DNA of 64,000 bases. It comes from Thermoanaerobaculia bacterium. Its GTDB lineage: Bacteria; Acidobacteriota; Thermoanaerobaculia; Multivoradales; UBA5704. Both the position numbers and the translations under genes were made by a program. Within the stretch, counting starts at the first letter, position 1. Every line of letters begins with the position of its first letter. The notes beneath the pieces are model-generated. The model saw only the letters and a list, made by a program, of their open reading frames with translations. It was not told where the DNA came from and ran no database searches. This document shows, in pieces, positions 6,001 through 60,047 of this stretch. The stretch spans positions 104 through 64,103 of the forward strand of contig DATEIO010000954.1 of the NCBI GenBank assembly GCA_035278895.1. The letters run 5' to 3'.

Positions 6001-9000
6001 CGATGCTCGGTGAGGCCGAGCGTCAGCAGATCCTTTCGGAGCACCAGGGACGGGCTCTGGAGGGAGAGGTCGCACCGCGTCTCCACGCGCTGTTCGAGCG
6101 GCAGGCACGGCAGCAGCCGGATGCCATCGCCGTGGTCTCAGGGGACGGCGAGCTCCGTTACGGAGACCTGGACGCTCGTGCCGAGCGGCTGGCGGACTGC
6201 CTGCGCGCTCTCGGCGTGGGACCGGAGGTGACGGTAGGCGTCTGCCTGGAACGCTCGCCACAGCTGCTGGTGGCGCTTCTCGGCGTGCTCAAAGCGGGCG
6301 GTGCGTACGTGCCGCTCGATCCGGGCTATCCGGCGGAGCGCCTGGCCTTCATGCTCAAGGACTCCGGCGCGGCAGTGGTGCTGAGCGAGTCCTCGGTGGC
6401 CGGAAAGCTGCCGGAGAGCCAGGCTCAGGTGGTGCGGCTAGATGACGCCTGGCCGTGGGCGGTCGGTCCCATGGCGGGACCGCCGGCCGAGCCGGGCCAC
6501 CTCGCCTATGTGATCTACACCTCGGGCTCCACCGGGCAGCCCAAGGGCGTGGCCATCGAGCACCGCAGCGCGGCCGCCCTCCTGGCCTGGGCGCAGGAGC
6601 TTTTCTCGGACCCCGAGGTCTCCGCAGTTTTCGCCTCCACGTCGATCTGCTTCGACCTCTCGATTTTCGAGCTGTTCGTTCCCCTGTCGCGGGGCGGCCG
6701 TGTGATCCTGGGGACTGACGCCCTGCAGCTTCCCGATCTGGCCGCCGCCGGCGAGGTGACGTTGATCAACACGGTGCCCTCGGCGATCAACGAGCTGCTG
6801 CGGATGAACGCGGTGCCGCCGTCGGTACGCACGATCAACCTGGCGGGTGAGCCCCTGCGCCGGGCCCTGGTCGACCGCATCGCGGCGCTCGGCACGGTGA
6901 AACGGGTGCTCAACCTGTACGGCCCGTCAGAGGACACGACCTACTCGACCGTTGCCGACGTCCCCCTGGACAGCGCCAGGGAGCCGCGGATCGGGCGTCC
7001 GGTGAGCGGATCGTCGGCGTTCGTCCTGGATCGCCAGGATCGGCTGGCGCCGCTGGGCGTGCCGGGCGAGCTGGTCCTCGCCGGCTCCGGGCTGGCGCGC
7101 GGCTACCTGGGCCGGCCGGAGCTGACGGCCGAGCGCTTTGTGCCCGATCCTTTCGGCAACGAGCCGGGCGGACGGCTGTACCGCACCGGTGACCTGGTCC
7201 GCCGATTGCGCGACGGCGATCTGGAGTTCCTGGGCCGGATCGATCATCAGGTCAAAGTCCGCGGCTTCCGGATCGAGCTGGGAGAAATCGAGGCGTCCCT
7301 GCTGGCGCAACCTGGGGTCCGCGAAGCGGTGGCCGTGGTGCGCGAGGACCGGCCGGGAGACCGCCGGCTGGTGGCCTACTTCGCTGGCGAGGCGGCGATT
7401 CCGGATCTCCGCGAGCGGCTGCGCGAAAAGCTCCCCGCCTTCATGGTTCCATCCTTGTTCGTCGCTCTCGACGCACTGCCGCTGACCCCCAACGGCAAGG
7501 TCGACCGGCGGGCGCTGCCGGCGCCGGAGAGCGAGCGGCCGGAGCCGCGGGCCGGGTTCTCGGCACCGGGCACGCCGGCCGAGCAGACTCTCGCGGAGAT
7601 CTGGGCGCAGGTGCTGGGGGTCGAGCGGGTGGGCGTGTACGACGACTTCTTCGAGCTCGGCGGGGATTCGATCCTGAGCATCCAGATCGTGGCCCGCGCC
7701 AACCAGTCAGGGCTGCGAGTGACGCCGCGCCAGCTCTTCGAGCACCCCACCGTGGCCGCGCTGGCCGCGGTGGCCGGCACCGCGGAGATTCCCAAGACCG
7801 AGCAGGGGCTGGTCACAGGACCGGTGCCCCTGACGCCGATCCAGCACTGGTTCTTCGAGCGTGGCTTCCAAAAGGTCGACCATTACAACCAGGCGCTGCT
7901 CCTCGAGGTACGGCAGCCCCTGGAGCCGGCGGTCCTCGAGCGGGCCGTCCTCCATCTCCTGACGCACCACGATGCGCTGCGGCTACGCTTCTTCCGCGGT
8001 TCCTCAGGGTGGCAGCAGGAGAGCCGTGGTCTGCCGGCACGGGCTCCGTTCGCCCGGATCGACCTGTCCACCCTGGCGCCCGCGCAGCGGCGGGCCAACC
8101 TCGAAGCGGCGGCGACCTGCGTACAGGCCGGCCTGCATCTGGCCACCGGACCGATCGTCCGTTGCGCCCTGTTCCACTTGGGCTCCGGCGAGCCGGACCG
8201 CCTGCTGATCGCCATCCATCATCTGGCCGTGGACGGCATCTCCTGGCGCGTGCTGCTGGAGGATCTCCAGGGGGCCTGCGAACAGTTGGCCGCGGGAGGT
8301 GAGGTACGCCTGCCGGCCAAGACCTCCTCCTTCCGGCAGTGGTCCGAGGCGCTGGAACGCCACGCCCGCTCCGCGGCGGTCCGCGAGGAGTTGGGCTTCT
8401 GGCTCTCCGGAGAGCGCCGCGGGGTGCGGCCCCTGCCGGTCGATGATCCCGCAGGACCCGTGGCGGCCACGGCCGGCTCGGCATTGTCCGTCGCAGTCTC
8501 CCTGGGAGAGGACGAAACGCGCGCGCTGCTCCAGGACGCGTCCCGGGCCTACGGCACCCGGATCGACGAGGTGCTGCTGTCCGCTCTGGCGTCCGCTTGC
8601 GCGGATTGGACCGGCGAGCCGCTGACCTTGATCGACGTAGAAGGGCACGGCCGTGAGGACCTCGGCGCCGGGATCGATGTGTCCCGCACCGTCGGCTGGT
8701 TCACGACGATCTACCCGGTGCTGCTCGACATCCGCGGCCTGTGGAGCCCGGGAGCGCTCCTGAAGTCGGTCAAGGAGCAGGTGCGCGGGATTCCGGGGCG
8801 CGGCCTGGGTTACGGGTTGCTGCGCCACTCCAGCGGAGATCCGGAGATCGCCGCTGCGCTGGGCGAGCTGCCGCAGGCCCAGATCCTCTTCAACTACCTC
8901 GGCCAAGTCGACCAAGCCCTGTCCGGGAGCGCGACGTTTGGTCCAGCCCGCGAGTCGGCGGGTCTGTCGATGGACCCGGCGGAGAGCCGCGAGTACCTCC

Positions 9001-12000
9001 TGGATGTCCAGGGAGTCGTGACCGGGGGACGGATGCACCTGACGCTGCGTTCCAGCGAACGGGTCCACCGCCGGGAAACCTTGGAGGCGTTGGCCGAAGG
9101 GATCTGGCGGCACCTGCAGGCCCTGATCGAACATTGTCTGTCTCCCGAGGCTGGCGGCTTCACACCCTCCGATTTCCCCCTGGCGGCTCTCTCCCAGGCC
9201 GCGGTCGATCGCCTCACCGCGGACCGCTCCGTCGAGGAGATCTATCCGCTCTCACCGATCCAGCTCGGGATGCTGCTCCACGCCCTGCGCGAGCCCGGCT
9301 CCGAGGTCTACTGCGAGCAGATGAGCTGCGCGTTCCGGGGGGAGCTCGATCGCGGCGCACTGCAGGCGGCCTGGCGCGGAGTGGTGAGCCGGCACTCCAT
9401 TCTGCGCACCGGGTTTGTCTGGGAGGGGCTCACCGAGCCTCTCCAGGTGGTCCATCGAGAGGTTGAGCTGCCGTTCGTCCACCAGCTCTGGCGGGACGTG
9501 CCGCCAGAGCTGGTGGAGGCCCGCTTCGCCGCCTTCCTGCGAGAGGACAAACAGCGCGGCTTCGATCTCGCGCAGGCGCCCCTGATCCGCCTGACCCTGA
9601 TCGAGCTCGCCCCGGGCGACTACCGGTTCGTCTGGACGACCCACCACATCGTCACCGACGGGTGGTCGACACCGGTCCTGGTCCGGGAGATGTTCGCCCT
9701 CTATGAAGCACAGCGGCAGGGGCGTGCGGCCGACCTTGCAACGGTCCGTCCGTTCCGCGGCTACATCGCCTGGCTGCGAGAGCAGAGCCCCGCCGCGGAC
9801 GAGCGCTTCTGGCGGCAGGAGCTCGCCGGCATCACGGGGCCCACCCCGCTCGACGTCGACCGTTGGGCTCCCGTTTCCGAAGAAACGAGGCATGGCGAGG
9901 AAAGAATCCAGCTCTCCGCGGCCGTCACCGCCGCCCTGGTTGCCCTGACCCGCCGTTGCAGTGTCACCCTGAGCACGGTCGTCCAGGGGGCGCTCGCCCT
10001 TCTGCTCGGTCGCTACAGCGGCCGGCGCGACGTGGTATTTGGCGCCACGGTCTCGGGCCGGCCGGCGCTGCTTGCCGGTGTCGAATCGATCGTCGGGCCG
10101 TTCATCAATACCCTGCCGGTCCGCGTCCGTGTCCCTGCGGATGGGGAAGACACGGCGTCGTGGCTCCGCGGGCTCCAGAAGCACCAGGCCGAGCGCCAGC
10201 AGCATGAGCACAGCCCCTCGGTTCAACCGTGGAGCGAAGTGCCCCTGGGACTGCCGCTCTTCGAGGTTCTGCTGGTGGTGGAGAACCAGCGGCAGGAGGT
10301 TCCGGCGGGCGGACCGGAAGCGGTGGCCGCAGCGGTCGAGATCCGCGAGGTGCGCTCGGAGGTGCGGACGCGCTATCCGCTCAACCTGGTCGTCCTGCCG
10401 GGCCGCGAGCTGGCGCTTTATGTGCCGTACAACGCCGCGCGGTTCGACGCCGGCACGATCCAGCGCTTCCTGCGGCACCTGGCGACCGCGTTGGAGAGCA
10501 TCGCGGAGGCTCCCGAAGCCCCGGTCTCCGAGATCGCCCTGTTCGACCGCCGCGAGCGGGAGCTGGTGACGAGTGGCGGCCGGAGCCTGGAGGAGCCTCT
10601 GCGCCGGCTCATCGCAGGACGGCGGTCGTGGGGCGATGAGGCCATGGCCGCGGGTCTGGAGGCCCTCCGCGATCCCCGGGTTCAGGTGTTGGATGAGGAC
10701 GGGCGGCCAGCGCCGGTCGGGGTGTCCGGAGAGCTCTGGGTGGAGGAGACCGGCGAGGGCGAGGTGAAGCGGCTCCGGACCGGCGAGCTGGCGCGCTTCC
10801 AGGAGACCGGGGAGATCGAGCTCCTCGGCCCTCTCGGCCAACGGATCGAGATCCGTGGCCGGCGCGTGGATCCGCAGACGGTCGAGCCGGTGCTCGCGGA
10901 GCATCCCGGGGTCGCCGAGGCCGCGGTGCTGGGGATCGGGTCCGTGGCGGGGGGCGAGCTGTGGGCCGGCGTCGTGGCCGCCCCTGGCCAGCCTCTGGAC
11001 GTGGCTGCCCTGCGGACCTGGCTCGAGAGCCGGCTGCCGAAGCACCGGGTGCCGCGCACGATCGTGCGCCTGGACGATCCCCCTCGGACACCGGACGGTG
11101 TGCTCGACCGCCGCTCCCTGCTCGCCACGGCGCGGAGCGCAGCGGAGGGCGCCGGCAGCGCTCCTGGAGAGCCGCTTCAGGAGATCCTGCTGGGTCTCTG
11201 GCGGGAGGTGCTCGGCGTCGAGGACCTGGGGGTGCACGACGGGTTCCTGGAGCTCGGCGGCCACTCGCTTCTCGCGGTCCGGCTGCTCGCCCGGCTGCGC
11301 GAGGTCTTCCAGGTCGAGGTCCCGCTGCGCACCCTGTTCGATGCGCCCAGCGTGGCGGAGCTCGCGCCGCAGCTCGCAGCGATGCTGGCGCTCGGCGGTC
11401 CGCGCGAAGCGCCCGCCCTCGTCCGGGTCACGGACGACCGCGGGCGGGACTTCGCCCCTTCGTACGCCCAGCAGAGGCTCTGGTTCCTCGATCAGCTCGA
11501 GCCGGACAATCCCTTCTACACGCACCTGTTCGGCGTCCGGCTCACCGGCCGTCTGGAGGCCGGGACGCTTGAAAAGGCCCTGTCCGAGATCGTGCGGCGG
11601 CACGAGGTTCTACGCACGACCCTGCCGGCGGTCGCGGGACAGCCGGTGCAGCGGATCGCGCCGCCGCGACCGGTCCGGCTGCCGCTGACCGACCTGGGCG
11701 GTTGTGCCGCGGAGGTGGCGGAGCAGGAGCTCCAGGCCTGGAGCCGGGAGGAGGCCTTGCGCCCCTTCGATCTGACGCGCGGACCGCTGCTGCGTGCCGC
11801 CCTGTTCCGTCTGGCCCCCGACCGGCATGTGATCTTCCTGACGTTGCACCACATCGTCATCGATGCCTGGTCGATCGGCCTCCTCTTCCGCGAGATGGCC
11901 ACGCTGTACCAGGCGTTCGAAGCCGGACAGGCTTCGCCGCTGCCGGAGCTGACGATCCAGTACGCCGACTTCGCGGAGTGGCAGCGGGGCTGGATGCAGG

Positions 12001-12875
12001 GAGAGGTTCTCGCGGATCACCTCGCTTACTGGAAACGCCATCTCGCAGGTGCCTGGAAGCTGCTGGAGCTCCCGGCCGACCGTCCGCGCCCCGACCGCCT
12101 GAGCTACCGCGGTGCGTGGATCCGGCTGCCCATTGCCGCAGCCACGTCGCAGAAGATCTCGGAGCTCAGCCGGCGTCAAGGGACGACCCCGTTCATGACG
12201 CTGCTCGCCGCCTTCGACGTCCTCTTGGCGCGGCTCTCGGGCCAGGAGGATGTGGTGGTTGGAATGACGGTCGCCAACCGGACCCGCGCGGAGATCGAAA
12301 ATCTGATCGGTTTCTTCGTGAATCTGCTGCCCCTGCGCGTCGATCTCTCGGGCTCCCCTACCTTCCTCGCTCTGCTGCAGCGGGTCCGCGAAGCCTCTCT
12401 CGGCGCGCAGGCCCACCAGGACCTGCCCTTCGACAAGCTGGTCGAAGCCGTGCGTCCCGACCGGAGCGCGGGCGACGCGCCCTTGTTCCGCATCACCTTC
12501 GGCGTGCAGAACACGCCGCAGGAGACCCTGGATCTCCCGGGGCTGCAGCTCAGCGCCTTCGGCCGGCAGGAGGAGACCGTGCGCTTCGATCTCACCGTCT
12601 GGGTGTTCGAGACCGAAACGGGCTTCTCGGTCCAGTGGAGCTACAGCACCGAGCTGTTCGACGAATCGACCATCCGGCTCCTGCACGACCGGTTCGCCCA
12701 GCTCCTCGAGAGCATCGTCGAGCGGCCCGAGGCCGAGATCGAGGCTCTGGAGATGCTCTCGCCCCAGGAGCGCCAGAAGCGGGCGCGTCTTGAAACAGCG
12801 AAGAAGACCTCGCGGCACGCCAAGCTGCTTGAAGCCCAACCGAAAAAACTCCGGCTGACCCGGCCGAACCACTAA
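1..12875 (+). CDS. Non-ribosomal peptide synthetase, 5' end cut by window edge: (T)-C-A-T-E-C-A-T-E-C-A*-T-C
   Basis: The frame is open from base 3 (LRALFEGPTIAELAERV = tail of a carrier domain), so the TTG at 39 in the ORF track is not the true start. Motifs read in translation: LCL-type C (LPLSFAQQRLWF ~121; HHIASDGWS); A (YTSGSTGRPKG ~1940 and ~6520; by-eye code DLFNNALTYK in both, Ala-like); T (LGGDSILS ~3085 and ~7660); E (LTPIQHWFF ~3265 and ~7835; HHLAVDGxSWR); DCL-type C after each E (YPLSPMQEGMLFH ~4714; YPLSPIQLGMLLH ~9241); 190-aa A remnant 10560-11130; T (LGGHSLLA ~11256); terminal C (HHIVIDAWS ~11850). Stop TAA 12873-12875. Confidence 0.95.
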   Translation, partial: LRALFEGPTIAELAERVHAAFQAGSGLELPAIQPVPRDRDLPLSFAQQRLWFLWQLEPESPAYNSPKALRMRGPLDVPALERTLDEIVRRHEVLRTTFPSTDGRPVQRIDPEARPGLPVHDLSADPDREERARAAFRAEAQRPFDLAREIPIRTRLLVLGPEDHVLLLTTHHIASDGWSVAVLEREVTALYQAFSAGEPSPLPELPVQYADFAEWQREWLQGEVLERQLAYWRGQLAGTPPVLELPLDRPRPAVASPRGKRLAFAVPSALSRSLTELSQRRSVTPFMTLLAGFQVLLARSSGQSDVSVGTPIAGRRHIETEGMIGFFVNTLVMRGAVEGTRSFDELLGQVRETALQAYAHQDLPFERLVDELAPERSLQHTPLFQVMLVLQNVERDGVQIGGLELSPFAAEPGVAKLDLLLSLGEEAGVLRGELQYRTELFDRATIARLAGHLVSLLESAAAAPQSLLSDLALLAPAERHQLLTEWNDTGVLPAGPATLPALFAAQAARSPRAVAVVCGEESLTYAELDRRAGRLAQRLRAMGVGPEVRVGLCAERSLEMVVGLLGVLKAGGAYVPLDPAYPQERLAFMLEDSGAPVVLAGASVLDRLPRGTTRVMALGEEGEDGPEVWATDAELPVEPGHLAYLIYTSGSTGRPKGVAIEHRSAAALLAWAREVFSDEEIAAVFASTSICFDLSVFELFVPLTRGGRVVLGADALELPGLPAAREVTLINTVPSALSELLRMNAVPPSVRAINLAGEPLRRALVDRIAALGTGARVMNLYGPSEDTTYSTFAEVSQRTSEEPRIGRPVSGSAAYVLDRDGQPAPLGVAGELYLAGAGLARGYLGRPELTAERFVPDPFGREPGGRLYRTGDLVRQRREGDLDFLGRIDHQVKIRGFRIELGEIEAALLAQPCVREAVVLVREDRPGDRRLVAYVAGDAVEPTLLRERLGERLPAYMVPALFVQLSALPLTPNGKVDRRSLPVPEGERPELRSGFLAPGTPAEQTLAAIWSQVLGVAQIGAHDNFFELGGDSILSIQIVARANQAGLRLTPRQIFLHPTVAGLAAAAGDPESTPAAEQGLVTGPVPLTPIQHWFFDQGFHRVDHFNQAVLLEVRKPLELKVLEQAVLHLLAHHDGLRLRFVQEPSGWRQEIGDLPQQAPVLFLDLSALPEDPWKDALEREATRVQASLSLTSGPIVRCALIHLGDGEPDRLLIVVHHLAVDGVSWRVLLEDLQRACEQLAAGGEARLPAKTSSYRQWAERLESHACSAAVRDEPGFWLSEDRRRVRPLPVDDLEGAAGLAGNTAGSTVSVAVELEEDETQALLQEVPKAYRTRIDEVLLAALALASEDWTGEPLSLVDLEGHGREELGADLDVSRTVGWFTSIYPALLDTQGLRSPGELLKSIKEQVRGIPGRGLGYGLLRYAGGDPETAAALGTLPQAQVIFNYHGQIDQVLAGSSIFAPASETTGPSMDPSERRRHLLSLNGIVSAGRLRMTVRFSDRVYRPATIQALAEGFRQHLRGLIEHCLSPEAGGATPADFPLLRASQRELDLLLAAVASSRAPEGRPEIQDLYPLSPMQEGMLFHSLFEAGTTAYVCQSRYALENLDVQAFERAWDAVIARQPVLRTGFFTTGSGRPVQAVERKAHLALRAEDWRGLAADRQREGLDELARRERQEGFELTKPPLMRQVLVRVGEREHHLIWTHHHLLMDGWSVPLVLREVAAAYRAFSAGEPLELPEARPYRDYIAFLQARDPGPAEELWRRILAGFTVPTVLPVERREASASPVEERGREQVRWPATSFAGLEAFARRHQLTVHTLVQGAWALLLGRYSGSDDVVFGSVVSGRPPQLAGVESMAGLFINTLPVRVQMPPRASVLPWLQSLQAEQLALREVEHTPLVQVQRWSEVPPGTPLFDTLLVFENYPVDPRIGQGLGALQIRRVEAVEHTSYPLNLLAAASGELSLTLEHDASRFEAATICALRLHLEQLLGGLVEDPQRSLADLPMLGEAERQQILSEHQGRALEGEVAPRLHALFERQARQQPDAIAVVSGDGELRYGDLDARAERLADCLRALGVGPEVTVGVCLERSPQLLVALLGVLKAGGAYVPLDPGYPAERLAFMLKDSGAAVVLSESSVAGKLPESQAQVVRLDDAWPWAVGPMAGPPAEPGHLAYVIYTSGSTGQPKGVAIEHRSAAALLAWAQELFSDPEVSAVFASTSICFDLSIFELFVPLSRGGRVILGTDALQLPDLAAAGEVTLINTVPSAINELLRMNAVPPSVRTINLAGEPLRRALVDRIAALGTVKRVLNLYGPSEDTTYSTVADVPLDSAREPRIGRPVSGSSAFVLDRQDRLAPLGVPGELVLAGSGLARGYLGRPELTAERFVPDPFGNEPGGRLYRTGDLVRRLRDGDLEFLGRIDHQVKVRGFRIELGEIEASLLAQPGVREAVAVVREDRPGDRRLVAYFAGEAAIPDLRERLREKLPAFMVPSLFVALDALPLTPNGKVDRRALPAPESERPEPRAGFSAPGTPAEQTLAEIWAQVLGVERVGVYDDFFELGGDSILSIQIVARANQSGLRVTPRQLFEHPTVAALAAVAGTAEIPKTEQGLVTGPVPLTPIQHWFFERGFQKVDHYNQALLLEVRQPLEPAVLERAVLHLLTHHDALRLRFFRGSSGWQQESRGLPARAPFARIDLSTLAPAQRRANLEAAATCVQAGLHLATGPIVRCALFHLGSGEPDRLLIAIHHLAVDGISWRVLLEDLQGACEQLAAGGEVRLPAKTSSFRQWSEALERHARSAAVREELGFWLSGERRGVRPLPVDDPAGPVAATAGSALSVAVSLGEDETRALLQDASRAYGTRIDEVLLSALASACADWTGEPLTLIDVEGHGREDLGAGIDVSRTVGWFTTIYPVLLDIRGLWSPGALLKSVKEQVRGIPGRGLGYGLLRHSSGDPEIAAALGELPQAQILFNYLGQVDQALSGSATFGPARESAGLSMDPAESREYLLDVQGVVTGGRMHLTLRSSERVHRRETLEALAEGIWRHLQALIEHCLSPEAGGFTPSDFPLAALSQAAVDRLTADRSVEEIYPLSPIQLGMLLHALREPGSEVYCEQMSCAFRGELDRGALQAAWRGVVSRHSILRTGFVWEGLTEPLQVVHREVELPFVHQLWRDVPPELVEARFAAFLREDKQRGFDLAQAPLIRLTLIELAPGDYRFVWTTHHIVTDGWSTPVLVREMFALYEAQRQGRAADLATVRPFRGYIAWLREQSPAADERFWRQELAGITGPTPLDVDRWAPVSEETRHGEERIQLSAAVTAALVALTRRCSVTLSTVVQGALALLLGRYSGRRDVVFGATVSGRPALLAGVESIVGPFINTLPVRVRVPADGEDTASWLRGLQKHQAERQQHEHSPSVQPWSEVPLGLPLFEVLLVVENQRQEVPAGGPEAVAAAVEIREVRSEVRTRYPLNLVVLPGRELALYVPYNAARFDAGTIQRFLRHLATALESIAEAPEAPVSEIALFDRRERELVTSGGRSLEEPLRRLIAGRRSWGDEAMAAGLEALRDPRVQVLDEDGRPAPVGVSGELWVEETGEGEVKRLRTGELARFQETGEIELLGPLGQRIEIRGRRVDPQTVEPVLAEHPGVAEAAVLGIGSVAGGELWAGVVAAPGQPLDVAALRTWLESRLPKHRVPRTIVRLDDPPRTPDGVLDRRSLLATARSAAEGAGSAPGEPLQEILLGLWREVLGVEDLGVHDGFLELGGHSLLAVRLLARLREVFQVEVPLRTLFDAPSVAELAPQLAAMLALGGPREAPALVRVTDDRGRDFAPSYAQQRLWFLDQLEPDNPFYTHLFGVRLTGRLEAGTLEKALSEIVRRHEVLRTTLPAVAGQPVQRIAPPRPVRLPLTDLGGCAAEVAEQELQAWSREEALRPFDLTRGPLLRAALFRLAPDRHVIFLTLHHIVIDAWSIGLLFREMATLYQAFEAGQASPLPELTIQYADFAEWQRGWMQGEVLADHLAYWKRHLAGAWKLLELPADRPRPDRLSYRGAWIRLPIAAATSQKISELSRRQGTTPFMTLLAAFDVLLARLSGQEDVVVGMTVANRTRAEIENLIGFFVNLLPLRVDLSGSPTFLALLQRVREASLGAQAHQDLPFDKLVEAVRPDRSAGDAPLFRITFGVQNTPQETLDLPGLQLSAFGRQEETVRFDLTVWVFETETGFSVQWSYSTELFDESTIRLLHDRFAQLLESIVERPEAEIEALEMLSPQERQKRARLETAKKTSRHAKLLEAQPKKLRLTRPNH
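10560..11130 (+). other. Truncated adenylation domain remnant (A*): only A6-A10-like C-terminal part, degenerate
   Basis: Only ~190 aa lie between the C-A linker (EIALFDRRERE ~10530) and the carrier domain. The recognisable relics are GELWVEE (A6), LRTGEL (A7), GQRIEIRGRRVDPQTVE (A8), LPKHRVP (A9) and PDGVLDRR (A10). The A10 Lys is replaced by Val at 11100-11102. There is no SGSTG P-loop and no specificity pocket. Confidence 0.8.
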
Positions 12876-12886
12876 GGAGGATGTCC

Positions 12887-13939
12887 ATGAGCCAACTGAC
12901 GAGCGATTCCAGCTTCAGCCGATTCGCCGCGCGCCCGCGCAAGGCCGTGCGCCTGTCCCAGGAGGAACTGATCAAGACCCGCTTCCTGCCGGAAGCGGAC
13001 GGTCAGGAGCTGCCGCTGGTGATCGAGCCCAACGTGGAGAATCTCAATCTCACCACCTGGGCGGCCAACAACCAGGGCTTCCTGGAAGAGAAGCTCCACA
13101 CCTACGGCGCTCTCCTGTTCCGCGGCTTCGACGTCGACGGCCCCGAACAGTTCCGCGAGGTGGCGCGGGCGATCTGCCCGGACCTGCTCGACTACACCGA
13201 GCGCGCGGCGCCGCGCAACGAGGTGAAGGAGAACGTCTACACCTCGACCGAGTTCCCGCCCGACCAGCACATCCCGATGCACCACGAGATGTCCTACTCG
13301 CACAACTGGCCGACCCGGCTCCTGTTCTTCTGCGATCAACCCTCGCAGGAAGGGGGCTGCACGCCGATCACCGACGATCGAAAAGTGATCGATCTGCTGG
13401 ATCCGGAGGTCAAACAGCGCTTCCTGGAGCGGGGAGTGATGTACGTCCGCAATTACGGAGAAGGGGTCGACATGCCCTGGCAGGTGGTCTTCCAGACCGC
13501 GGACAGGGCCGGGGCCGAGGCCTACTGCCGGGACGCCCACATGGACATCGAGTGGCGCGACGGCGATCGCGTCCGCACCCGCGCCCGGCGCCAGGTGCTC
13601 GCGACCCATCCGAAGACGGGCGACACGGTCTGGTTCAACCATGCCCACCTGTTCCACATGTCCAACCTGGAGCCGGCAGTCCGCGACGCGCTGCTCGCCG
13701 AGTTTGAGCCCGACGAGCTGCCGCGCAACGCCTTCTACGGCGACGGCTCGGCGATCGAGGCGCCGGACCTGGAGCACATCCGCCGCACCTACAGCGACAA
13801 CGCCGTCCGCTTCCTTTGGCAGAAGGGGGACGTCCTTCTGGTCGACAACTTCCTGGTGTCGCACGGCCGCGATCCGTTCAAGGGACCCCGCCGGATCCTG
13901 GTCGCCATGGCGGACCTCTACACCAATCCGGATCTCTGA
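12887..13939 (+). CDS. TauD/SyrP/KtzO-like Fe(II)/2-oxoglutarate-dependent amino-acid hydroxylase
   Basis: AAGGAGG lies at 12874-12880. The track start ATG 12881 abuts it; the in-frame ATG 12887 has a 6-nt spacer and is preferred. The translation shows the TauD-family layout, with an HxE iron ligand pair (PMHHEMSY) and a distal His-Gly-Arg (FLVSHGRDPFKG). The gene starts 5-11 nt after the upstream NRPS stop, inside the NRPS operon. Confidence 0.85.
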   Translation: MSQLTSDSSFSRFAARPRKAVRLSQEELIKTRFLPEADGQELPLVIEPNVENLNLTTWAANNQGFLEEKLHTYGALLFRGFDVDGPEQFREVARAICPDLLDYTERAAPRNEVKENVYTSTEFPPDQHIPMHHEMSYSHNWPTRLLFFCDQPSQEGGCTPITDDRKVIDLLDPEVKQRFLERGVMYVRNYGEGVDMPWQVVFQTADRAGAEAYCRDAHMDIEWRDGDRVRTRARRQVLATHPKTGDTVWFNHAHLFHMSNLEPAVRDALLAEFEPDELPRNAFYGDGSAIEAPDLEHIRRTYSDNAVRFLWQKGDVLLVDNFLVSHGRDPFKGPRRILVAMADLYTNPDL

Positions 13940-13988
13940 TCCCAACGAGACCCTGATCACGAATTCGACTCCGTAGAGGGGATGGCAC

Positions 13989-15280
13989 ATGCGGCAGCAA
14001 GTCATTGAAGGTTTCCGTCTCTCTCCCCAGCAGCGGCAGCTCTGGCGGCACCGCGGCACGGCAGGAGCCCAGGTGGTGCAGTGCGCCGCCACTCTTGAGG
14101 GAGCGGATCCGGACCGTTGGGAACAGGCGCTCCGCGAGGTGGCCTGGCGGCACGAGGCCCTGCGCACCCGCTTCGAATGCCTGCCGGGCATGGAAGTGCC
14201 GATCCAGGTGATCGGCGAGGAGGTCGCGCTCCCGGTACGGCGGATCTCCGCCGGCTCCATGGCTGCCGCGGGAGTGGAGGAGGCGGTCCGGAGCTGGATG
14301 GAGCAGGAGAGGGCTCCTTTCGACCTCCGGTCCGCTCCGCCGGTCCGCTTCGCTCTGGCCTCTCTCGGCGCGGGCCGGGACCTCCTGATCCTCTCTGCTC
14401 ATGCGCTGTGCGCCGATCCCTGGAGCCTGGAGAATCTTCTCTGCGACCTCGTCCAGGCCTGCGCCGCCCCGGGCGACGGCGAGGCCTTCGACGCGGAGGC
14501 TCTGGGATACGTCCAGTTCTCCGAATGGCAGAACGAGCTGCTCGAAGACCGTGAGAACGAAGACGAGGAGGCGTCCGCCTTCTGGGCCCGGCAGACCCGG
14601 GACGACGGCGCGCCGCTCTCGCTGCCGATCGAACGGGCTCCGCACCGCCGGACCACGGCGGAGAGAGCGGCGGCCCCGGCCGTGCGCCGACGCCTGGAGG
14701 CCGCGGCCCTGGAGCGGGCGGCGGAGGCCTGCGGATCCTCGGTCACGACCCTGGTTCTAACCTGCTGGGGGCTCCTCCTGGCCCGCCTCGCGGACGTCGG
14801 GGAGATCTCGATGCAGCTCTACACCCCGGGTCGCAAGTTCCCTGAGCTCCAGGGCGCGATCGGAGCCTTCGGCCGCTATCTTCCGCTGCGCCTGCGGGGG
14901 CCGGCGGGCCGGTCGCTCAAGGCGGAGGCCGCGCGCGTCACGGAAAGGCTGCTGGAGGTCGAGAGGTGGGAGGAGCTTTTCGCCGGGCGCGCGGAATCCG
15001 GCGTGGAGAGCGGCGATCCGGCAGATTTCGGTTTCGATGCCGAGGACCGGCAGACCCTGTTCGAGGAGGGGAGCCTGCGCCTCACAGTCCTCGAGACGGA
15101 GTGGGCGAGCCAGCCTTTCCGGCTCCGCCTGTCGGTGAGCCGCTGCGCCGGTGAGCTCGAGCTGACCTTGCGGTTCGATCCGGCGCACTTCGACCGTGGG
15201 GCCGTGCACCGGCTCGCGGACAGCCTGGAGTCCCTGCTGCGGCAGGCCGCGCGCTCGCCCGAGACCGCCACGGCCGACTT
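13989..15280 (+). other. Full-length condensation-like domain lacking the catalytic His (C*)
   Basis: About 430 aa. It has a C1-like motif (LSPQQRQLW) and its own C-A linker (LDVLGEAERQQMDAWN ~15285). The C3 motif reads H-A-L-C-A-D-P, so the second (catalytic) His is Ala. Confidence 0.7.
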
Positions 15281-18200
15281 GGACGTCCTGGGCGAGGCCG
15301 AGCGGCAGCAGATGGACGCGTGGAATGCGACCGCGATCGATTTCCCGGACGAGGCGAGCCTTTCCTGGCGGTTTGCGGCCCAGGCCGAGCGTGCGCCTGA
15401 AGCGGTGGCCGTGGTGGCACCGGAAGGGCAGCTCACCTTCCGCGCTCTCAGCAAACGCGTCGACCGTCTCGCGGATCGCCTGCGCGGCCTCGGGGTCGGT
15501 CCCGAGGTGCGCGTGGCCCTCTGCCTCGACCGTTCCCTGGATCTGATCACCGGTATTCTGGGCGTGCTGGCGGCGGGCGGAGCCTACGTGCCGTTCGATC
15601 CCTGGCAGCCGGCCGAGCGCCTGGCGGCCCTGCTCGAAGACTCAGGCGCGCCGGTGGTCCTCTGCCAGAGCCGCTCGCGGGGGCGGGTGCCCTGCGGAGC
15701 CTGGCAGGTGGTCTGCCTCGATGGGGAAAGCGCACCCCTGGCGCAGGAGCCGGAGAGGTGTGCGAGCCCGGCAGCCGGACCGGAGAGCCTCGCCTACGCC
15801 ATCTACACCTCGGGCTCCACCGGCCGCCCCAAGGCGGCGTTGATCGAAAACCGGTCCGTGGCGAACCTCCTGTTGGCTCTGGAGCGCGAGATCTACTCCC
15901 GGCTTGACGGCCGCCGGCCCCTGCGGGTGACTCTCAATGCGCCGGTCTCGTTCGATGCCTCCGTCAAGCAGTGGATCCAACTGCTGCAGGGCCGGACCCT
16001 GCTGGTGGTTCCCGAGGAGGTGCGGGCGGACGGCGAAGCGTTGCTCTTGTGGCTCAACCAGAACCACGTGGACGTCCTCGACTGCACGCCGTCGCAGCTC
16101 CGCCTGCTCCTCGCCGCCGGCCTCGGCAGCGAGCCCGACCGCTTCGCGATCTACCCGCGCGCCGTGCTGGTCGGTGGCGAGGCCATCGATCCCGGCCTGT
16201 GGGCACAGCTCGCCCGCGACAAGGGGCGGCTCTTCTTCAACGTCTACGGTCCCACGGAATGCACGGTCGACACGACCGTGTGCCGGGTGGAGCCGGGGGG
16301 CACCCCTTCGATCGGCGGGGCGCTCGCCAATGTCCGGACCTACGTGGTCGACGCCGGGTGGCGCCGGACGCCGATCGGGGTTCCGGGCGAGCTCTGCATC
16401 GCCGGCGCCGGCCTGGCGCGCGGGTATGCCGGGCGCCCCGACCTGACGGCGGAGAAGTTCGTGCCCGATCCGTTCGCCCCTGAGCCGGGCGCCCGTCTCT
16501 ACCGGACCGGCGACCGCGCGCGCTTCTGCGGAGACGGCCGGCTGGAATACCTCGGGCGCGTCGACCACCAGGTCAAGATCCGTGGCTACCGGGTGGAGCT
16601 GGGGGAGATCGAAGGGGTGCTCTCGCGCCACCCGGGCGTGGCACAGACGGTGGCGGCGCTGCGCGAAGACCAGCCCGGACGCCCGCGCCTGGTGGCCTAC
16701 GTGACGCCGCGGCGGCGGCACGCGGAGAAAGTGGGGGAGGGGCAGCACGAGCTGCCGAACGGCCTCCGCGTCACCCACCAGAACCGCAACGAGACCGAGT
16801 ACCTGTACCGGGAGATCTTTGAGAGCCGGTGCTACGCCCGGCACGGAATCTTCCTGCCCGAGGACGCCTGCGTTTTCGACGTCGGTGCCAACATCGGCAT
16901 GTTCACCCTCTTCGTGCAGGGAGAGTGTACGCGGCCGCGGGTCTACGCCTTCGAGCCCCTGTCTGCGATCCACGACTGCCTGCGGGCGAACAGCCAGCGG
17001 TATGGGCTGGACGTGAAGCTCTTCCGGTTCGGCCTGTCGGATCGGGAACGGACGGAGCGGTTCACCTACTACCCCAGCTACTCGATGATGTCCGGGCAGA
17101 GTGCCTACGCTCAGCCGTCCGCCGAGATCGAGGTCATCCGGCGCTTCCTCGAAAACCAGACCGCCAGCGGCATCGCTGGCGCGGACGCCCTGCTGGCCGA
17201 GGCGGGCGACCTGCTTGCCAATCGCTTCCGGATGGAGGAGGCCGAGGTCACCTTGCGCCGTCTCTCCAACGTGATGCGGGAGCAGGGGATCGAGCACGTC
17301 GATCTGTTGAAGATCGACGTGCAGCGGGCCGAGCTGGACGTGCTCCTCGGGATCGACGACGAGGATTGGCCGCGCATCGACCAGGTCGTCCTCGAAGTCC
17401 ACGACGGGGCCGGCGAGGCGACCGAAGGACGGGTCGCTCAGATCCGCGCCCTGCTGGAGCCGCGCGGCTTCCGCGTGGTGGCCGAGCAGGACGAGCTGCT
17501 GACCGGCACCGATCGCTACAACGTCTACGCCATCCGCCAGGGCCTGGAGACCCGGGCCGCCCGCGCCTGCGAGGCTTCAGGGCTCGCCCGGTTGCGCGAG
17601 GCCGGCGCGGCGGAGCTCTCGGCCGACGGCCTTCGCGAGCACGCCCGCCGCTGGCTGCCGGACTTCATGGTCCCCTCCGATCTGGTGATCCTGGACGAGC
17701 TCCCCATCACCCCCAACGGCAAGGTCGACCGCCGCGCGCTGCCGGCGCCGGAAGAGGTGGCCGCAGCCGGGCAGCGCCAGGTCCGGGCGCCACGCACTCC
17801 GATCGAAGAGGTCCTGGTGGGGCTCTTCGCCGCAGTGCTCGGCCTCGACCGGGTCGGCGTCGACGAGAGCTTCTTCGACCTGGGGGGGCACTCCCTGATG
17901 GCCACCCAGCTCATGGCGCGGGTGCGCGAGACCTACCGGGTGGAGATGCCGCTGCGCCTCCTCTTCGAGCGCCCCACGCCGGAGCGGCTGGCCCAGAGCG
18001 TGGCGACCGCTCTGCGCGCCGGCGTCGACGTCCGGGAGTCCATCCCGCCGGTGCCGCGCGAGGGCGATCTGCCGCTCTCGTTCGCGCAGCAGCGGCTCTG
18101 GTTCGTCCAGCAGTTGGAGCCGGACGCCACGATGTACAACAGCATCAAGGCGCTCCGCGCCCGGGGGGAGCTCGACGTCGCGGCCCTGGAGGCCACCTTC

Positions 18201-19475: not shown

Positions 19476-19504
19476 CAGGCCTGGAGAGATTTCGGAGGAC
19501 CGCC

Positions 19505-20820
19505 ATGGAACAACTGCAGTCGTCGCTCGAGGGATTCTGGCTTTCTCCCCAGCAGAAGCGCGTGTGGCTCCTGAGCCGGAGCGGCCCCGCTCTGGTCGAA
19601 CAGGGTGTCGTTCTCGTGGAAGGCTCTCTCGATCCGCGCCGCCTCGAAGCGGCGCTGGCGCGGGTTCTCGAGCGGCACGAAATCCTTCGGACCACCTTCA
19701 AAGCGGTGTCCGGCATGGCGTTCCCGCTCCAGGTCGTCGAGGACGGCGCGGACCTCGCGCTGCGCACCATGGACTGGAGCGCCGGAGGCCCCGGAATTGC
19801 GGAGGACGAGGCATTCGACGCCATCCTGCGCGAAGAGCGGGAGACCGGCTTCGACTTCGAGGAAGGGCCGGTCGCACGCTTCTGCCGCATCACGCTCGGC
19901 GGGCAGCGGCACGCGCTGGTGATCACGCTGCCGTCCGTCTGCGGAGATGCGGCGAGCCTCGAAAACCTGGTCGGCGAGATCGGCCGGGAGTATCTCGCGG
20001 AGAGCGGAGTGCCGAGCCTGCAGGAGCAGGAGGAGCCGGTCCAGTACATCCAGTTCTCGGAGTGGCAGAACGAGATCCTGAGCGACACCTCCGAGGAGGG
20101 GGAGCCGGGACGGCGCCACTGGCGGTCGCGCCAGGAGATCTCCGGGCCAGCGCCAAGCCTGCCTCTCGAAGGAGAGGCAGAGGTGGCGCAAGGGGTCTCC
20201 CGGACCTTGCGCCTCTCGCCGGGCCCGGACCTCGGGGCAGGCCTGGCCGCCTGGGCCGCGGCGCGGGGGGTGACGGAGAGCGCGGTCCTCCTCGCAGCCT
20301 GGTGGGGCACGCTCTGCCGGCTGACCGATCGCGAGGAGCTCCGGATTTCCGTGCAGTGCCACGGCCGGGCCTATGAAGAGATGCTCGGGGCCATCGGGCT
20401 CTACGAGCGCTGGCCCGCAATCGGCCGCGGTCTACGCAGCAGCTTCCTGTTTTCGGAGGTGGTCGACTCTTTCTCCCGGGAGCTCGCCGAAGCGCTGGAA
20501 TGGCAGGAGCTCTACGGGCCTGAGGCGCTCGACGGGAGCACCGCCGGAGGCGGGGGATTCGGCTTCGAGTACACCACCCGCCGCGGCGAGCCTTTCCAGG
20601 CGGGGCCGGTGCGCTTCTCCCTGGCGCGGCTCGACGGCTGCACCGAACGCTTCAAGCTCCGCCTCTCCGCAGCGCGCGGTCCGCGAGGGCTCGGGCTCGA
20701 CCTGTGCTTCGATCCGGGCCTGTACGAGGACACGGCGGCGCTGCGCCTCGCGGAGAGCTTCTTCGCCCTGCTCGCCGCGGGTCTGGCAGCGCCCGACACT
20801 CCCGTCCAGGAGCTCGAGGT
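19505..20820 (+). other. Full-length condensation-like domain lacking both His of HHxxxDG (C*)
   Basis: The C1-like motif GFWLSPQQKRVW is present. The C3 position reads LPSVCGDAA (19931-19951), with no His at all. It has its own C-A linker, LEVLGGTELGLLALWN (~20815). Confidence 0.7.
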
Positions 20821-23800
20821 GCTGGGCGGCACGGAGCTTGGGCTCCTCGCCCTGTGGAACCGCACCTCCTGCCCGCGGCCGGCCGAAGAGCGCCTGCACG
20901 AGCTGTTCGCCGAGCAGGCGAGGCGCACCCCCAAGGCCCTGGCGGTGCTCGCCGGCGACGCGCGGCTGACCTTCGCCGAGCTCGACCAGCGGGCCAACCG
21001 GATCGCCTGGCTCCTGGCCGGTCTCGGGATCGGACCCGACGACCGGGTGGCGCTCTGCCTCGAGCGCTCGGCGGACGCCATCGCCGCCCTCCTGGGGATT
21101 CTCAAGGCCGGCGGCGCCTATGTGCCGGTCGACCCCCTGCAGCCGGGCGACCGGCTCGCCGCCATGCTCTCGGACGCCGGGGCCCGGGTGGTCCTGAGTC
21201 AGAGCCGTCTCTCTTCGCGCGTGCCGCCGGGCTCCTGGCGCACGGTGCTTCTGGATGAGGAGAGCGAGCTCCTGGAGCAGCAGCCCGGGACCGCTCCGGA
21301 GGTGAGCGTCACCGCGGAGCACCTAGCCTACGTGATCTATACCTCGGGCTCCACCGGCCGGCCCAAGGGGACGCTCATACGGCACCGGTCCGTGGCCAAC
21401 CTGATCGTCGCTCTCGACCGGGCCATTTACGGCCGGCTGGGAGAGGGGCCGTGGCGGGTGAGCGTCAATGCGCCTCTGTATTTCGACGCCTCGGTCAAGC
21501 AGTGGGTCCGGCTGCTCCGCGGCGACACGCTGGCGATCGTGGCCGAGGAGCTGCGTACCGACGCTCCGGCGCTCCTCGACTGGCTGCGCCGGGAGCAGGT
21601 GGACGTCCTCGACTGCACACCGTCGCTCTTGCGGCTCCTGCTCGGTGCCGGGCTTCCGGCCGCGGATGGCAGGCCTCAGGCCCTGCTGATCGGCGGGGAG
21701 GCGATCGACGCGGCGCTCTGGGAGGCGCTGGCGGCCGACCCTCATCGCCGGTCCTTCAACGTCTACGGCCCCACCGAATGCACCGTCGACGCTGCCATCG
21801 ACGAGATCGCGGCCGGCCGGACGCCGGCCCTCGGCCGGGCGATCGCCAACGTGGAGCTGTACGTCCTCGGCTCGGCGCTGCACCGGCAGCCGCTGGGGAG
21901 CCCGGGTGAGCTGTGCGTGGGCGGGGAAGGGCTGGCGCGCGGCTATCTGGGCCGCCCCGATCTGACGGCGGAGAAGTTCGTGCCCGATCCCTACGGCGGC
22001 CGGCCGGGGGGCCGTCTCTATCGCACGGGCGACCGCGCGCGTTTCCTCCCGGATGGCAGGATCGAGTTCCTCGGCCGCCTGGACCACCAGATCAAGCTGC
22101 GCGGCTTCCGGATCGAGCTGGGCGAGATCGAGGCTGCCCTGGCCAGCCACCCGGAGGTGAGTGAAGCGGTGGCGCTCTTGCGCGAGGACCAGCCCGGCCA
22201 GCCGCGCCTCGTGGCCTATGCCGTGGGGCGGAACCGGGACTGCTCACCGGCGCCGGAAGAGCTGCGCGAGCACCTGCGCGGGCTGCTGCCCGACTACATG
22301 GTCCCGGCCGCCTGCGTGGCCCTCCGGGAGATGCCCCTGACCCGCAACGGCAAGGTCGACCGCCGCGCGCTGCCCGCGCCGGAGGAGGTGGCCACCGAGG
22401 CGCGGGAGCGCCTGACGCCGCGGACCCCCATCGAAGAGATCCTGGTCGGGATCTTTGCCGACGTTCTCGGCATCCAGCCTCCGGGCGCCGACGAGAGCTT
22501 CTTCGAGCTCGGCGGGCACTCGCTTCTGGCCACTCAGCTCATCGCCCGGGTGCGCGAGTCGTTCCGCATCGACCTGCCTCTGCGCGTCCTTTTCGAGGAC
22601 CCCACGGCGGCGGCGCTGGGACCGCGGATCGAAGCCGCTCTGGCAGCCGGAGGCGCTCTGGAGGCGCCGCCACTCCAGGCGATGCCGCGCGAGGGGGACC
22701 TCCCCCTGTCTTTTGCCCAGCAGCGGCTCTGGTTCCTCTGGCAGCTCGAGCCGGACAGCCCGGCGTACAACAACCCCAAGGCCCTGCGGATCCGCGGTCC
22801 GCTGGAGGTCGCCGCCGTGGCGCAGACGCTCCGGGAGATCGTGCGTCGCCACGAGGTCCTGCGCACGACGTTCCCGGCCCTGGAGGGAGAGCCGGTGCAG
22901 CGGATCGAGCCGGCGGCGTTTCTCTCCCTGCCGCGGATCGACCTGTCGTCCCTGCCCGAGGAGGAGCGGGAAGCGGTGGCGCACCACCTTTTCCGCGCGG
23001 ATGCGCGGCGCCCATTCGACCTGGCGTGCGAGATCCCGGTGCGGGCGCAGTTGCTGTGCCTCGACGCCGACGACCATGTCCTGCTTCTCACCTTCCACCA
23101 CATCGCCTGCGACGCCTGGTCGCTGGCGGTTCTGGAGCGCGAGGTGACCCGGCTCTACGAGTCCTTCGCCGCCGGCCGGCCCTCCCCCTTGTCCGAGCTG
23201 CCGGTCCAGTATGTGGACTTCGCGCGCTGGCAGCGCGATTGGCTGCGGGGGGAAGCCCTGGAGCGCCAGCTCGCCCATTGGCGTGGCCGGCTCGAAGGCG
23301 CTCTGCCGGTCCTCGCGCTGCCGCTCGACCGGCCGCGTCCCGCGGTGTCGAGCTCGCGCGGCCGGCGGCAGACGCTCGCGATTCCGGCCCCGCTGTCGCG
23401 CGCCCTGGCCGAGCTGAGCCAGCGGCGGGCGTCGACCCTGTTCATGACTTTGCTGGCCGGCTTCCAGGCCCTGCTGGCCCGCCTCTCGGGGCAGGAGGAC
23501 GTGAGCGTCGGAACCCCGATTGCAGGCCGCCGCCATGTCGAGACCGAAGGGCTGATCGGGTTTTTCGTCAACACCCTCGTGCTGCGCGGACGGATGGAGG
23601 GGAACCCGGCGTTCGAGGATCTCCTGGGACAGGCTCGGGAGACCGCGCTCCAGGCCTACGCTCACCAGGACCTCCCGTTCGAACGCCTGGTCGACGAGCT
23701 CGCTCCGCAGCGCGACATGGCGCACTCGCCGCTCTTCCAGGCCCTGCTCGTTCTGCAGAACGTGGGACGGGACGGTGTGCAGGTCGCCGGCCTGGATCTC

Positions 23801-53233: not shown

Positions 53234-53279
53234 CTGGACGCGGGAGGCCAGAGCCACAGCCAGGGTATGATCCTGGTTG

Positions 53280-54544: not shown

Positions 54545-54560
<16 letters not shown>
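53280..54560 (+). CDS. Soluble sensor histidine kinase (GAF-like N-terminal domain, HisKA, HATPase_c)
   Basis: H-box AHEIRNPLTAIRST. N/G boxes LNLLLNALQSMP, IADTGPGIP, GTGLGLAICYGIV. No hydrophobic TM segments. The track start is TTG 53277; ATG 53280 is the next codon. Confidence 0.85.
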
Positions 54561-55951
<1,391 letters not shown>

Positions 55952-59899: not shown

Positions 59900-59952
59900 A
59901 TTTTCCGAGGCTCTGCTCCTCGCCTCTTCCGGAAGGTTTCCTTTTCAGGACG

Positions 59953-59968
59953 TGGTCCGCCTCTTGCA
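59953..59968 (+). promoter_or_regulatory. Sigma54-like -24/-12 element TGGTCCG-N4-TTGCA
   Basis: The sequence TGGTCCgcctcTTGCA has exact GG-N10-GC spacing and lies 80 nt upstream of the radical SAM ATG (60048). The -24 box deviates from the CAC consensus. Confidence 0.4.
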
Positions 59969-60047
59969 AACTATCTGGTCGCCCAAGGCAAAACGAGATA
60001 GTTGGCTCGTCGAAACACAATCCGACTTCACTCCAGAGAGGTGCTCC

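Follow-up and report, generated by a model that had tools for sequence, protein, structure and literature searches.

A truncated adenylation domain at the edge of a reduced AMB-type unit in a giant acidobacterial peptide synthetase

The window analysed here is a 64,000-nucleotide stretch of contig DATEIO010000954.1 from a bacterium of the Thermoanaerobaculia (Acidobacteriota), and it holds a non-ribosomal peptide synthetase (NRPS) locus with a GC content of ~71%. In module 3 of its first synthetase, N1, the adenylation (A) domain is a catalytically dead, folded and retained remnant (A*), and directly behind the N1 stop codon lies a gene for a TauD/TfdA-family Fe(II)/2-oxoglutarate oxygenase. 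The stub, of the kind described for KtzH and GdnB, takes the AmbB position in a reduced AMB-type unit, and this unit forms part of a giant acidobacterial NRPS. On balance we favour a reading in which module 3 is a working elongation module with a dead A* stub, and the TauD protein is the oxygenase of the adjoining AMB-type glutamate-methyltransferase (Glu-MT) unit. The anatomy of the module, its conservation and the homology of the cassette were observed directly and are described before the chemistry that they suggest.

The adenylation remnant of module 3

Domains were mapped by phmmer with the window's own domains as queries and by comparison with Pfam and NCBIfam; specificity codes were extracted against GrsA positions. 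The N1 frame is open from the left edge of the window to nucleotide 12875 (stop codon at 12873-12875) and encodes a carrier (T) domain end followed by C-A-T-E-C-A-T-E-C-A*-T-C, where C denotes condensation and E epimerization domains. Module 3 and its flanks are composed as follows:

9279..10559, + strand: C3, condensation domain located behind an E domain and DCL-type by position; HHIVTDGWS motif intact
10560..11183, + strand: C-A linker and A* remnant, consisting of the A_core tail and the whole of A_sub (A6-A10 region only), with motifs A1-A5 deleted
11184..11393, + strand: T3, a carrier with GGHSL (Ser codon 11265-11267), 95% identical to its counterpart in locus L001 (below), with a dN/dS of 0.13
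11454..12776, + strand: C4, the C-terminal condensation domain of N1, LCL-type, with the motif HHIVIDAWS, positioned like the C domain of AmbB

The C3 domain ends at residue 3507 (nucleotide 10559) and T3 begins at about residue 3716, leaving a gap of ~208 residues (nucleotides 10560-11183). An initial annotation, made from the letters of the sequence, had described an A region of ~190 residues between intact C, T and downstream C domains, and this description held: the catalytic motifs HHIVTDGWS of C3, GGHSL of T3 and HHIVIDAWS of C4 are all kept. The profile comparison that it had proposed gave only two Pfam matches in the gap, to positions 349-375 of the 384 in AMP-binding (E 0.04) and to positions 2-75 of the 76 in AMP-binding_C (E 1.5e-10). 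Likewise, the NCBIfam ligase models matched A* only over their last ~120-160 positions. When A* was aligned to the full-length A domains of modules 1 and 2 (N1-A1 and N1-A2), it began just before motif A6, so that motifs A1-A5, including the P-loop and the specificity pocket, are gone, again as the annotation had it. The same alignment revealed a second deletion of ~23 residues after A6.

The remaining motifs were recovered where they had been noted. These are GELWVEE at 10728-10748, the A7 motif LRTGEL at 10773-10790, in which the A7 Asp has become Glu, IEIRGRRVDPQTVE at 10845-10886, an A8 reading GPLGQRIEIRG, the A9 motif LPKHRVP at 11034-11054, and the A10 motif PDGVLDRR from 11091, in which a GTG codon (Val) at 11100-11102 replaces the A10 Lys. 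A*-T was modelled with AlphaFold2 from an alignment of A-T regions taken from the window itself, and the model reached a mean pLDDT of 77; A_sub and the carrier were modelled confidently and the beta-strand remnant of A_core moderately so, and the first ~37 residues were disordered. Foldseek matched this model to the A_sub-T parts of DhbF, LgrA and EntF (E ~1e-19). Module 3 therefore has the feature known from KtzH, a truncated A domain without its adenylate-forming core in front of an intact carrier.

The truncation recurs. The same order of C-A*-T-C, TauD and C'-A-MT-T-C, where C' is a condensation-like domain described below, was found with identical truncation boundaries in three other independent assemblies: WUUC01133594.1 (L001/L090), whose TauD is 96% identical to that of the window, ERZ1758171 and SRR28401904 (L004/L005; 74%), and JGI 3300055048 (L086; 65%). 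The A10 Lys is missing in all A* lineages (replaced by V, A, L or R), and the A7 Asp is likewise missing. The ratio of non-synonymous to synonymous substitution rates (dN/dS) of A* was 0.31 against L001 (dS 0.35) and 0.43-0.45 against L004 (dS 1.1-1.2), compared with 0.13-0.31 for the neighbouring domains, of which T3 was the most constrained. These ratios indicate that A* is under purifying selection, and A* derives from one ancestral truncation. Homologs retrieved with the stub were all short and fragmentary proteins, and a metagenome scan re-found nothing but the WUUC contig and a single full-length A domain of the ordinary kind. Two A* lineages (L004 at 11064-21041 and L086 at 11090-21050) have, behind the TauD gene, a pair of C'-A(Glu)-MT-T-C proteins in succession, a doubling that suggests two methoxy-Glu residues; in the window there is a single protein of this kind, and the Glu module after it lacks an MT.

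N1 is a repetitive gene in which modules 1 and 2 are near-duplicates, and an assembler could in principle have collapsed or deleted a full-length A domain at this point. Three other independent assemblies from different samples share the truncation and its boundaries, at divergences of dS 0.35 to 1.2 and with the reading frame kept throughout, and an assembly artefact is thereby effectively refuted. The preserved frame reported for the window by the initial annotation is thus a property of the whole set of diverged assemblies.

The oxygenase and its recurrent cassette

The N1 stop codon is followed by the oxygenase gene and by two further synthetase genes, N2 and N3:

12887..13939, + strand: TauD/TfdA Fe(II)/2-oxoglutarate oxygenase (alternative ATG at 12881) with H134, E136, H328 and R330, belonging to the second (AmbD-position) clade
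13989..15323, + strand: C', the N-terminal C-like domain of N2, without a catalytic His (SAHALCADPWS), the positional counterpart of the AmbE region 'Q'
15372..17753, + strand: N2 A domain with the Glu code DAKDLGVVDK and an FkbM-family methyltransferase (16854-17498) between motifs a8 and a9
17799..18023, + strand: N2 carrier with GGHSL at 17883, on which, by the AMB paradigm, Glu is predicted to be hydroxylated by the TauD and O-methylated by the MT (PMC8968710, PMC10880069)
18066..19397, + strand: C-terminal condensation domain of N2, ordinary LCL-type, with Txo1/Txo2 as its best matches in the PDB and not AmbE-C2-like
19505..22237, + strand: start of N3 (probably ATG 19505 and not GTG 19220), with a second His-less C' (LPSVCGDAAS) and then a Glu-code A domain (DAKDLGVVDK) without MT

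The TauD protein matched the Pfam TauD family (E 2e-47) and PDB entry 1y0z (E 2.8e-43), with the HHE and H-x-R residues aligned. Both the H-x-D/E...H iron triad and the 2-oxoglutarate-binding Arg that define the family are present, as H134-x-E136 and H328-G-R330. Translation could begin at ATG 12881 or 12887, 5 or 11 nucleotides past the N1 stop, in line with the spacing and intact HxE...H-G-R given for it in the initial annotation; a Shine-Dalgarno sequence, AAGGAGG, at 12874-12880 favours the latter. An exact-sequence look-up gave no match, the best match in species-representative genomes was 77% identical and came from a Thermoanaerobaculia metagenome-assembled genome (MAG), and NCBIfam has no specific model for these oxygenases. 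A foreign origin of the gene, considered because total GC dips there, was rejected, as the GC content at third codon positions (0.90) equals that of the neighbouring genes.

We then fetched ~80 loci encoding TauD relatives from genomes and annotated them in the same way as the window. A cassette recurs among them, in which a protein ending in A-T-C is followed by one or two TauD genes, usually two in tandem, and by a protein of the order (C')-A-FkbM MT-T-C. Its hosts include Micromonospora, Streptomyces, Saccharothrix, Sorangium, Burkholderia, Bradyrhizobium and Acidobacteria. The code of the upstream A domain is DLFNCALTY (Ala) in ~50 loci. Among single-TauD loci, the closest ones that have a full-length A domain upstream carry other codes: Ser-like (L013), Gln (L007), Gly-like (L089) and Ile/Val-like (L088). 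In contrast, the downstream MT-interrupted A domain has the Glu code D(A/G/S)KDLG(V/L)VD throughout, as does that of N2 (DAKDLGVVDK).

This order is that of the pathway to the toxin AMB, a methoxyvinylglycine, in Pseudomonas aeruginosa. There, AmbB is an A(Ala)-T-C protein, AmbC and AmbD hydroxylate C3 and C4 of a Glu tethered to the first carrier of AmbE (T1), and the AmbE methyltransferase O-methylates the 4-hydroxyl, after which the AmbB C domain condenses and the second AmbE C domain (AmbE-C2) dehydrates (PMC4357302, PMC8968710, PMC10880069). In loci with two TauD genes, the C domain after A-MT-T was best matched by AmbE-C2 (7r9x, with scores of 247-259 bits) or McyA, at 247-294 bits overall, and we class these loci, from their domain sequences, as bona fide AMB-like. 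Such AMB-like cassettes (among L006-L085; for example L023-L057 in Micromonospora, L017 in Bradyrhizobium and L082 in Burkholderia) consist of an Ala A-T-C, two TauDs, a Glu A-MT-T and an AmbE-C2-like C domain. They are widespread and strongly conserved among actinomycetes, Micromonospora included, and are found in several Proteobacteria as well. Just upstream of the cassette, many of the Micromonospora loci carry an additional A-T with the code DMPQVGLVW.

The window shares with AMB the order of a T-C protein end, an Fe/2-oxoglutarate oxygenase, and a protein with a non-catalytic N-terminal region of ~450 residues followed by A(Glu), an embedded MT, T and C. Shared as well are the C domain at the C-terminus of the upstream protein, the placement of the MT between a8 and a9, and the presence in the system of a carrier without an A domain of its own. 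The unit in the window is nevertheless reduced. It has one oxygenase, not two, and that of the AmbC-position clade is missing. Where AMB has an Ala-activating A domain at the AmbB position the window has the A* stub, and the C domain after the N2 carrier is neither of the dehydrating AmbE-C2/CmodAA type nor followed by T2-TE (TE, thioesterase) but is of the ordinary LCL type, matching Txo1/2 at 298 bits and AmbE at 85 bits in the PDB comparison. Dehydrating or 'interface'-type activity was considered for both C4 and the terminal C domain of N2 and was rejected, both being plain LCL-like. Finally, the unit of the window is embedded in an assembly line of at least 13 modules and is expected to give methoxy-Glu, not a vinylglycine.

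In a neighbour-joining tree the TauDs split cleanly into a clade of first-of-tandem and a clade of second-of-tandem proteins, and the window TauD fell in the second. The TauDs of L004 and L013, the single-TauD MT loci among those listed, did so too. A search with the second Bradyrhizobium TauD for AmbD of P. aeruginosa returned, in its best 120 matches, only soil and metagenome relatives. The closest genome-resolved relatives of the window TauD (66-77% identity; L002/L006 and L087) do not lie beside an A-MT module. In L002 (L002/L006 6440-8624, a Thermoanaerobaculia MAG) two TauDs stand at the end of a cluster, next to genes for an ABC transporter, a sulfotransferase and MacB; in L087, a 9.3 Mb contig, the TauDs have radical-SAM and MacB genes as neighbours. 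Oxygenases of this clade therefore also occur outside the cassette.

Within N2, the A domain occupies residues 462-906 and 1213-1255 and the methyltransferase residues 964-1163 (TIGR01444 FkbM, E 1.9e-27). The MT thus interrupts the A domain between a8 and a9, which is the arrangement of family 2 interrupted A domains (A8-M(O)-A9; KtzH A4 and ThxA2 type; PMC8341866). In contrast to the latter, the code is that for Glu and not for Ser/Thr or Tyr, and the predicted methyl acceptor is an enzymatically installed hydroxyl.

A C' domain of ~440 residues opens both N2 (13989-15323) and N3 (19505-20848). In 18 loci (including L004, L007, L009-L011, L013, L016, L017, L059, L063, L073, L086, L088 and L089), a His-less C' directly follows the TauD gene or genes; a motif alignment showed the Asp retained and the second His replaced in every case. 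One of the 18, L017, is a bona fide AMB-like locus. AmbE itself starts with an unexplained region 'Q' of ~461 residues (PMC4357302), and C' is probably its counterpart, to judge from position. As N2 and N3 each come after a protein with an active C domain at its end, every subunit junction reads T-C / C'-A-T. C' may dock the terminal C domain of the upstream protein or recruit the oxygenase.

The carrier of the oxygenase and the loading of module 3

In AMB terms, C4 of N1 would correspond to the AmbB C domain, the TauD to the AmbD-position oxygenase, and the C'-A(Glu)-FkbM MT-T of N2 to the Q-A-MT-T1 of AmbE. The A domain of module 3 would have been cut down once in an ancestor, and the stub may have been kept as a folded spacer or recognition element. 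Glu would be loaded onto the N2 carrier by the N2 A domain and hydroxylated there by the TauD, probably at carbon 4; the embedded MT would then O-methylate the hydroxyl that the TauD had installed, and C4 would join the peptide held on T3 to the modified Glu. With the carbon-3 hydroxylase of the AmbC position and the dehydrating C domain both missing, the residue would stay a methoxy-Glu and no vinylglycine would form. Since the retained hydroxylase adjoins the A-MT gene, and its product in the AMB system is the hydroxyl methylated by the MT, methoxy-Glu is predicted. By this analogy the N2 residue is probably a hydroxylated and O-methylated Glu, 4-methoxy-Glu (159.05 Da). It is from the comparison with AMB and the cassette loci that we infer the carrier served by the TauD, its regiochemistry, the target of O-methylation and the loading of T3.

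The initial annotation had assigned the oxygenase to the other side. Following the logic of KtzH, T3 would be loaded in trans with Glu by a stand-alone or Glu-code A domain, and the TauD would hydroxylate this T3-bound Glu, placing a hydroxy-Glu at module 3. An A* with an intact carrier does have a TauD gene immediately downstream, and Glu-code A domains lie just downstream in all four A* lineages. Trans-loading of an A-less carrier also occurs in the AMB system, where the AmbB A domain loads one in trans (PMC4357302). In kutzneride biosynthesis KtzO and KtzP act on carrier-bound Glu (PMC11611013), and the KtzH A* is reported as needed for KtzN-mediated loading (PMC10587159, citing Strieker 2009). 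The analogy is thus sound in that such TauDs, KtzO/P and AmbC/D alike, act on carrier-bound Glu, but it leaves the MT-interrupted Glu module of N2 unused and its embedded MT without the hydroxyl that it methylates in the AMB paradigm. Moreover, a TauD of the same clade occupies the same place between T-C and Glu-MT in dozens of loci in which the upstream A domain is full length and has unrelated codes (Ala, Ser, Gln, Gly and Ile/Val), and adjacency of the TauD gene to A*-T is therefore no support for action on that carrier. The position of the TauD gene is explained by the fixed placement of the oxygenase in the cassette, and its adjacency to A*-T would then be a consequence. With the upstream code variable, the downstream Glu-MT constant and the biochemistry of AMB established, the N2 carrier is the parsimonious TauD substrate. 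Assignment of the TauD to T3 is less parsimonious and the weaker reading, and we regard it as rather unlikely.

The search for a dedicated loader points the same way. Neither strand of the 64 kb showed a further A domain, and no MbtH motif was found, the 5' end of the cluster lying outside the window; the initial annotation had likewise seen no stand-alone A or MbtH gene here. Within the 64 kb, the cluster therefore lacks the dedicated stand-alone A protein of the KtzN kind that a KtzH-type system encodes. The part of the annotation that does stand is trans-loading as such: with A* dead and with T3, C3 and C4 looking functional, T3 would have to be aminoacylated by some other A domain. T3's partnership with the adjacent TauD is the less likely part. 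As an internal module needs an acceptor on T3 to pass the chain on, T3 is most likely loaded by another A domain, as its motifs and conservation suggest. Candidates are the Ala-code domain N1-A2, the A domains with Glu codes in N2 or N3, and an unlinked stand-alone A protein. The upstream A domain that corresponds to N1-A2 in L086 has a Phe-like code. When A*, T3, C3 and C4 were compared with every domain in the related loci, no discriminating signal for ancestry or cargo emerged. Purifying selection on A* fits the need for the KtzH A* in KtzN loading that is summarised in PMC10587159.

Alternatively, A*-T3 could be a relic that the chain skips or that is never loaded; the chain would pass straight from module 2 to C4, and A*-T3 would serve only to stabilise the megasynthase. 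The domains other than C in C13-A*-T13 of GdnB are described as structurally needed (PMC10587159), and A* is somewhat more relaxed than its neighbours in dN/dS. In contrast to what is expected of a relic, T3 is the best conserved piece of the module, with 95% identity, a dN/dS of 0.13 and its GGHSL kept, and C3 and C4 both retain HHxxxD. The glidonin precedent is a termination module using a free amine, whereas an internal module requires the T3 acceptor. We consider it very unlikely that A*-T3 is such a relic. Somewhat less remote, yet still improbable, is a scheme in which a single A domain feeds two carriers. The Glu A domain of N2, docked to N1 through C4 and C', would load its own carrier and A*-T3 alike, the A_sub stub would be the recognition element, and C' (found also at the start of N3 and equivalent to AmbE 'Q') would recruit the TauD, so that the product would contain hydroxy-Glu, methoxy-Glu and possibly hydroxy-Glu again. 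If true, one A domain feeding two carriers would explain A* and Q together with the recruitment of AmbC/D-type oxygenases.

Several points weigh against the assignment of the TauD to the N2 carrier that we prefer. The equation with AmbD is drawn from gene order, clade structure and co-retention with the MT and not from direct comparison of AmbC, AmbD and AmbE sequences. The similarity of T3 to the N2 and N3 carriers is about the same as its similarity to other pre-LCL carriers, and the TauD could serve more than one carrier. T3 has candidate loaders but no assigned one, and the 5' part of the cluster lies beyond the window. With a single oxygenase, the chemistry would also have to differ from that of AMB.

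The assembly line and its relation to known systems

N1 is incomplete in the window, since nucleotides 3-38 encode the tail of a carrier domain, LRALFEGPTIAELA, and the TTG at 39 is not a true start. With the frame open to the edge and this carrier tail in it, the assembly line begins outside the window. The N1 ortholog of L001 has at least 4632 residues. Modules 1 and 2 (1509-8900), both C-A-T-E, are near-duplicates (764 bits between the two A domains and 662 bits between the two E domains) and share the Ala code DLFNNALTYK, so that two D-Ala residues in a row are predicted. N2 (13989-19475) has the order C'-A(FkbM MT inserted)-T-C, and N3 runs from its probable start at 19505 to 48913 as C'-A-T followed by eight C-A-T modules and a TE, which brings the line to at least 13 modules within the window. 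The long N3 open reading frame from GTG 19220 overlaps the end of N2, and its first 95 codons look non-coding for an NRPS; the homologous N-terminus, MEQLQSSLEGFWLSPQQ (compare MRQQVIEGFRLSPQQ of N2), begins at ATG 19505. The N3 A domains (20906-48913) have codes for Glu, Ser, a Glu-like DAKDPAVVDK, Gln, Gln, a hydrophobic DAFFLGVFAK, Ser, Ser and Gln, ahead of the TE, whose GWSMGG motif lies at 48320. N3 is without E domains, and its product is predicted from these codes to be very polar. Downstream lie genes for an ABC exporter, a MacB/FtsX pump, a sigma-54 activator (53267-55951, with an N-terminal region of ~430 residues of no assigned family) and ABC-2 permeases, and, 3' of the exporters, a radical-SAM protein of 532 residues (59952-61550). 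The nearest relatives of the locus are from uncultured Acidobacteriota, mainly Thermoanaerobaculia, Blastocatellia and Pyrinomonadaceae.

Two described stubs bear comparison with A*. Module 3 of KtzH also has a truncated, non-functional A* before a functional carrier, TauD-type oxygenases are encoded in its cluster and act on carrier-bound Glu, and KtzH itself carries an a8-M-a9 interrupted, O-methylating A domain. The window differs in having no stand-alone KtzN-like A gene and in that the conserved partner of its hydroxylase clade is the downstream Glu-MT; KtzH, KtzO and KtzP were compared here by description and not by sequence. In module 13 of GdnB (C-A*-T-TE, glidonin) the A* similarly lacks A_core and the code (~190 of 409 residues covered) and is retained and needed for integrity. 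The glidonin module serves termination, with free putrescine used by its C domain, in contrast to the internal module of the window, where the chain is handed on through T3.

A literature search for methoxy-glutamate in peptides found it only as the AMB intermediate and in no finished non-ribosomal peptide. Gene adjacency had misled the first reading of this locus. The hydroxylase most likely belongs to an AMB-like unit, made up of an oxygenase, a Glu A domain and a methyltransferase, that is portable and spans phyla; in uncultured Acidobacteria this unit has been built, in reduced form, into a very large NRPS and should there yield methoxy-glutamate. The A* under selection adds to the few described cases, KtzH and GdnB, and offers a natural test case for the role of an A_sub stub and for the supply of A-less carriers. 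The conserved His-less C' is a concrete candidate for the 'Q' region of AmbE and bears on how AmbC/D-type oxygenases are recruited.

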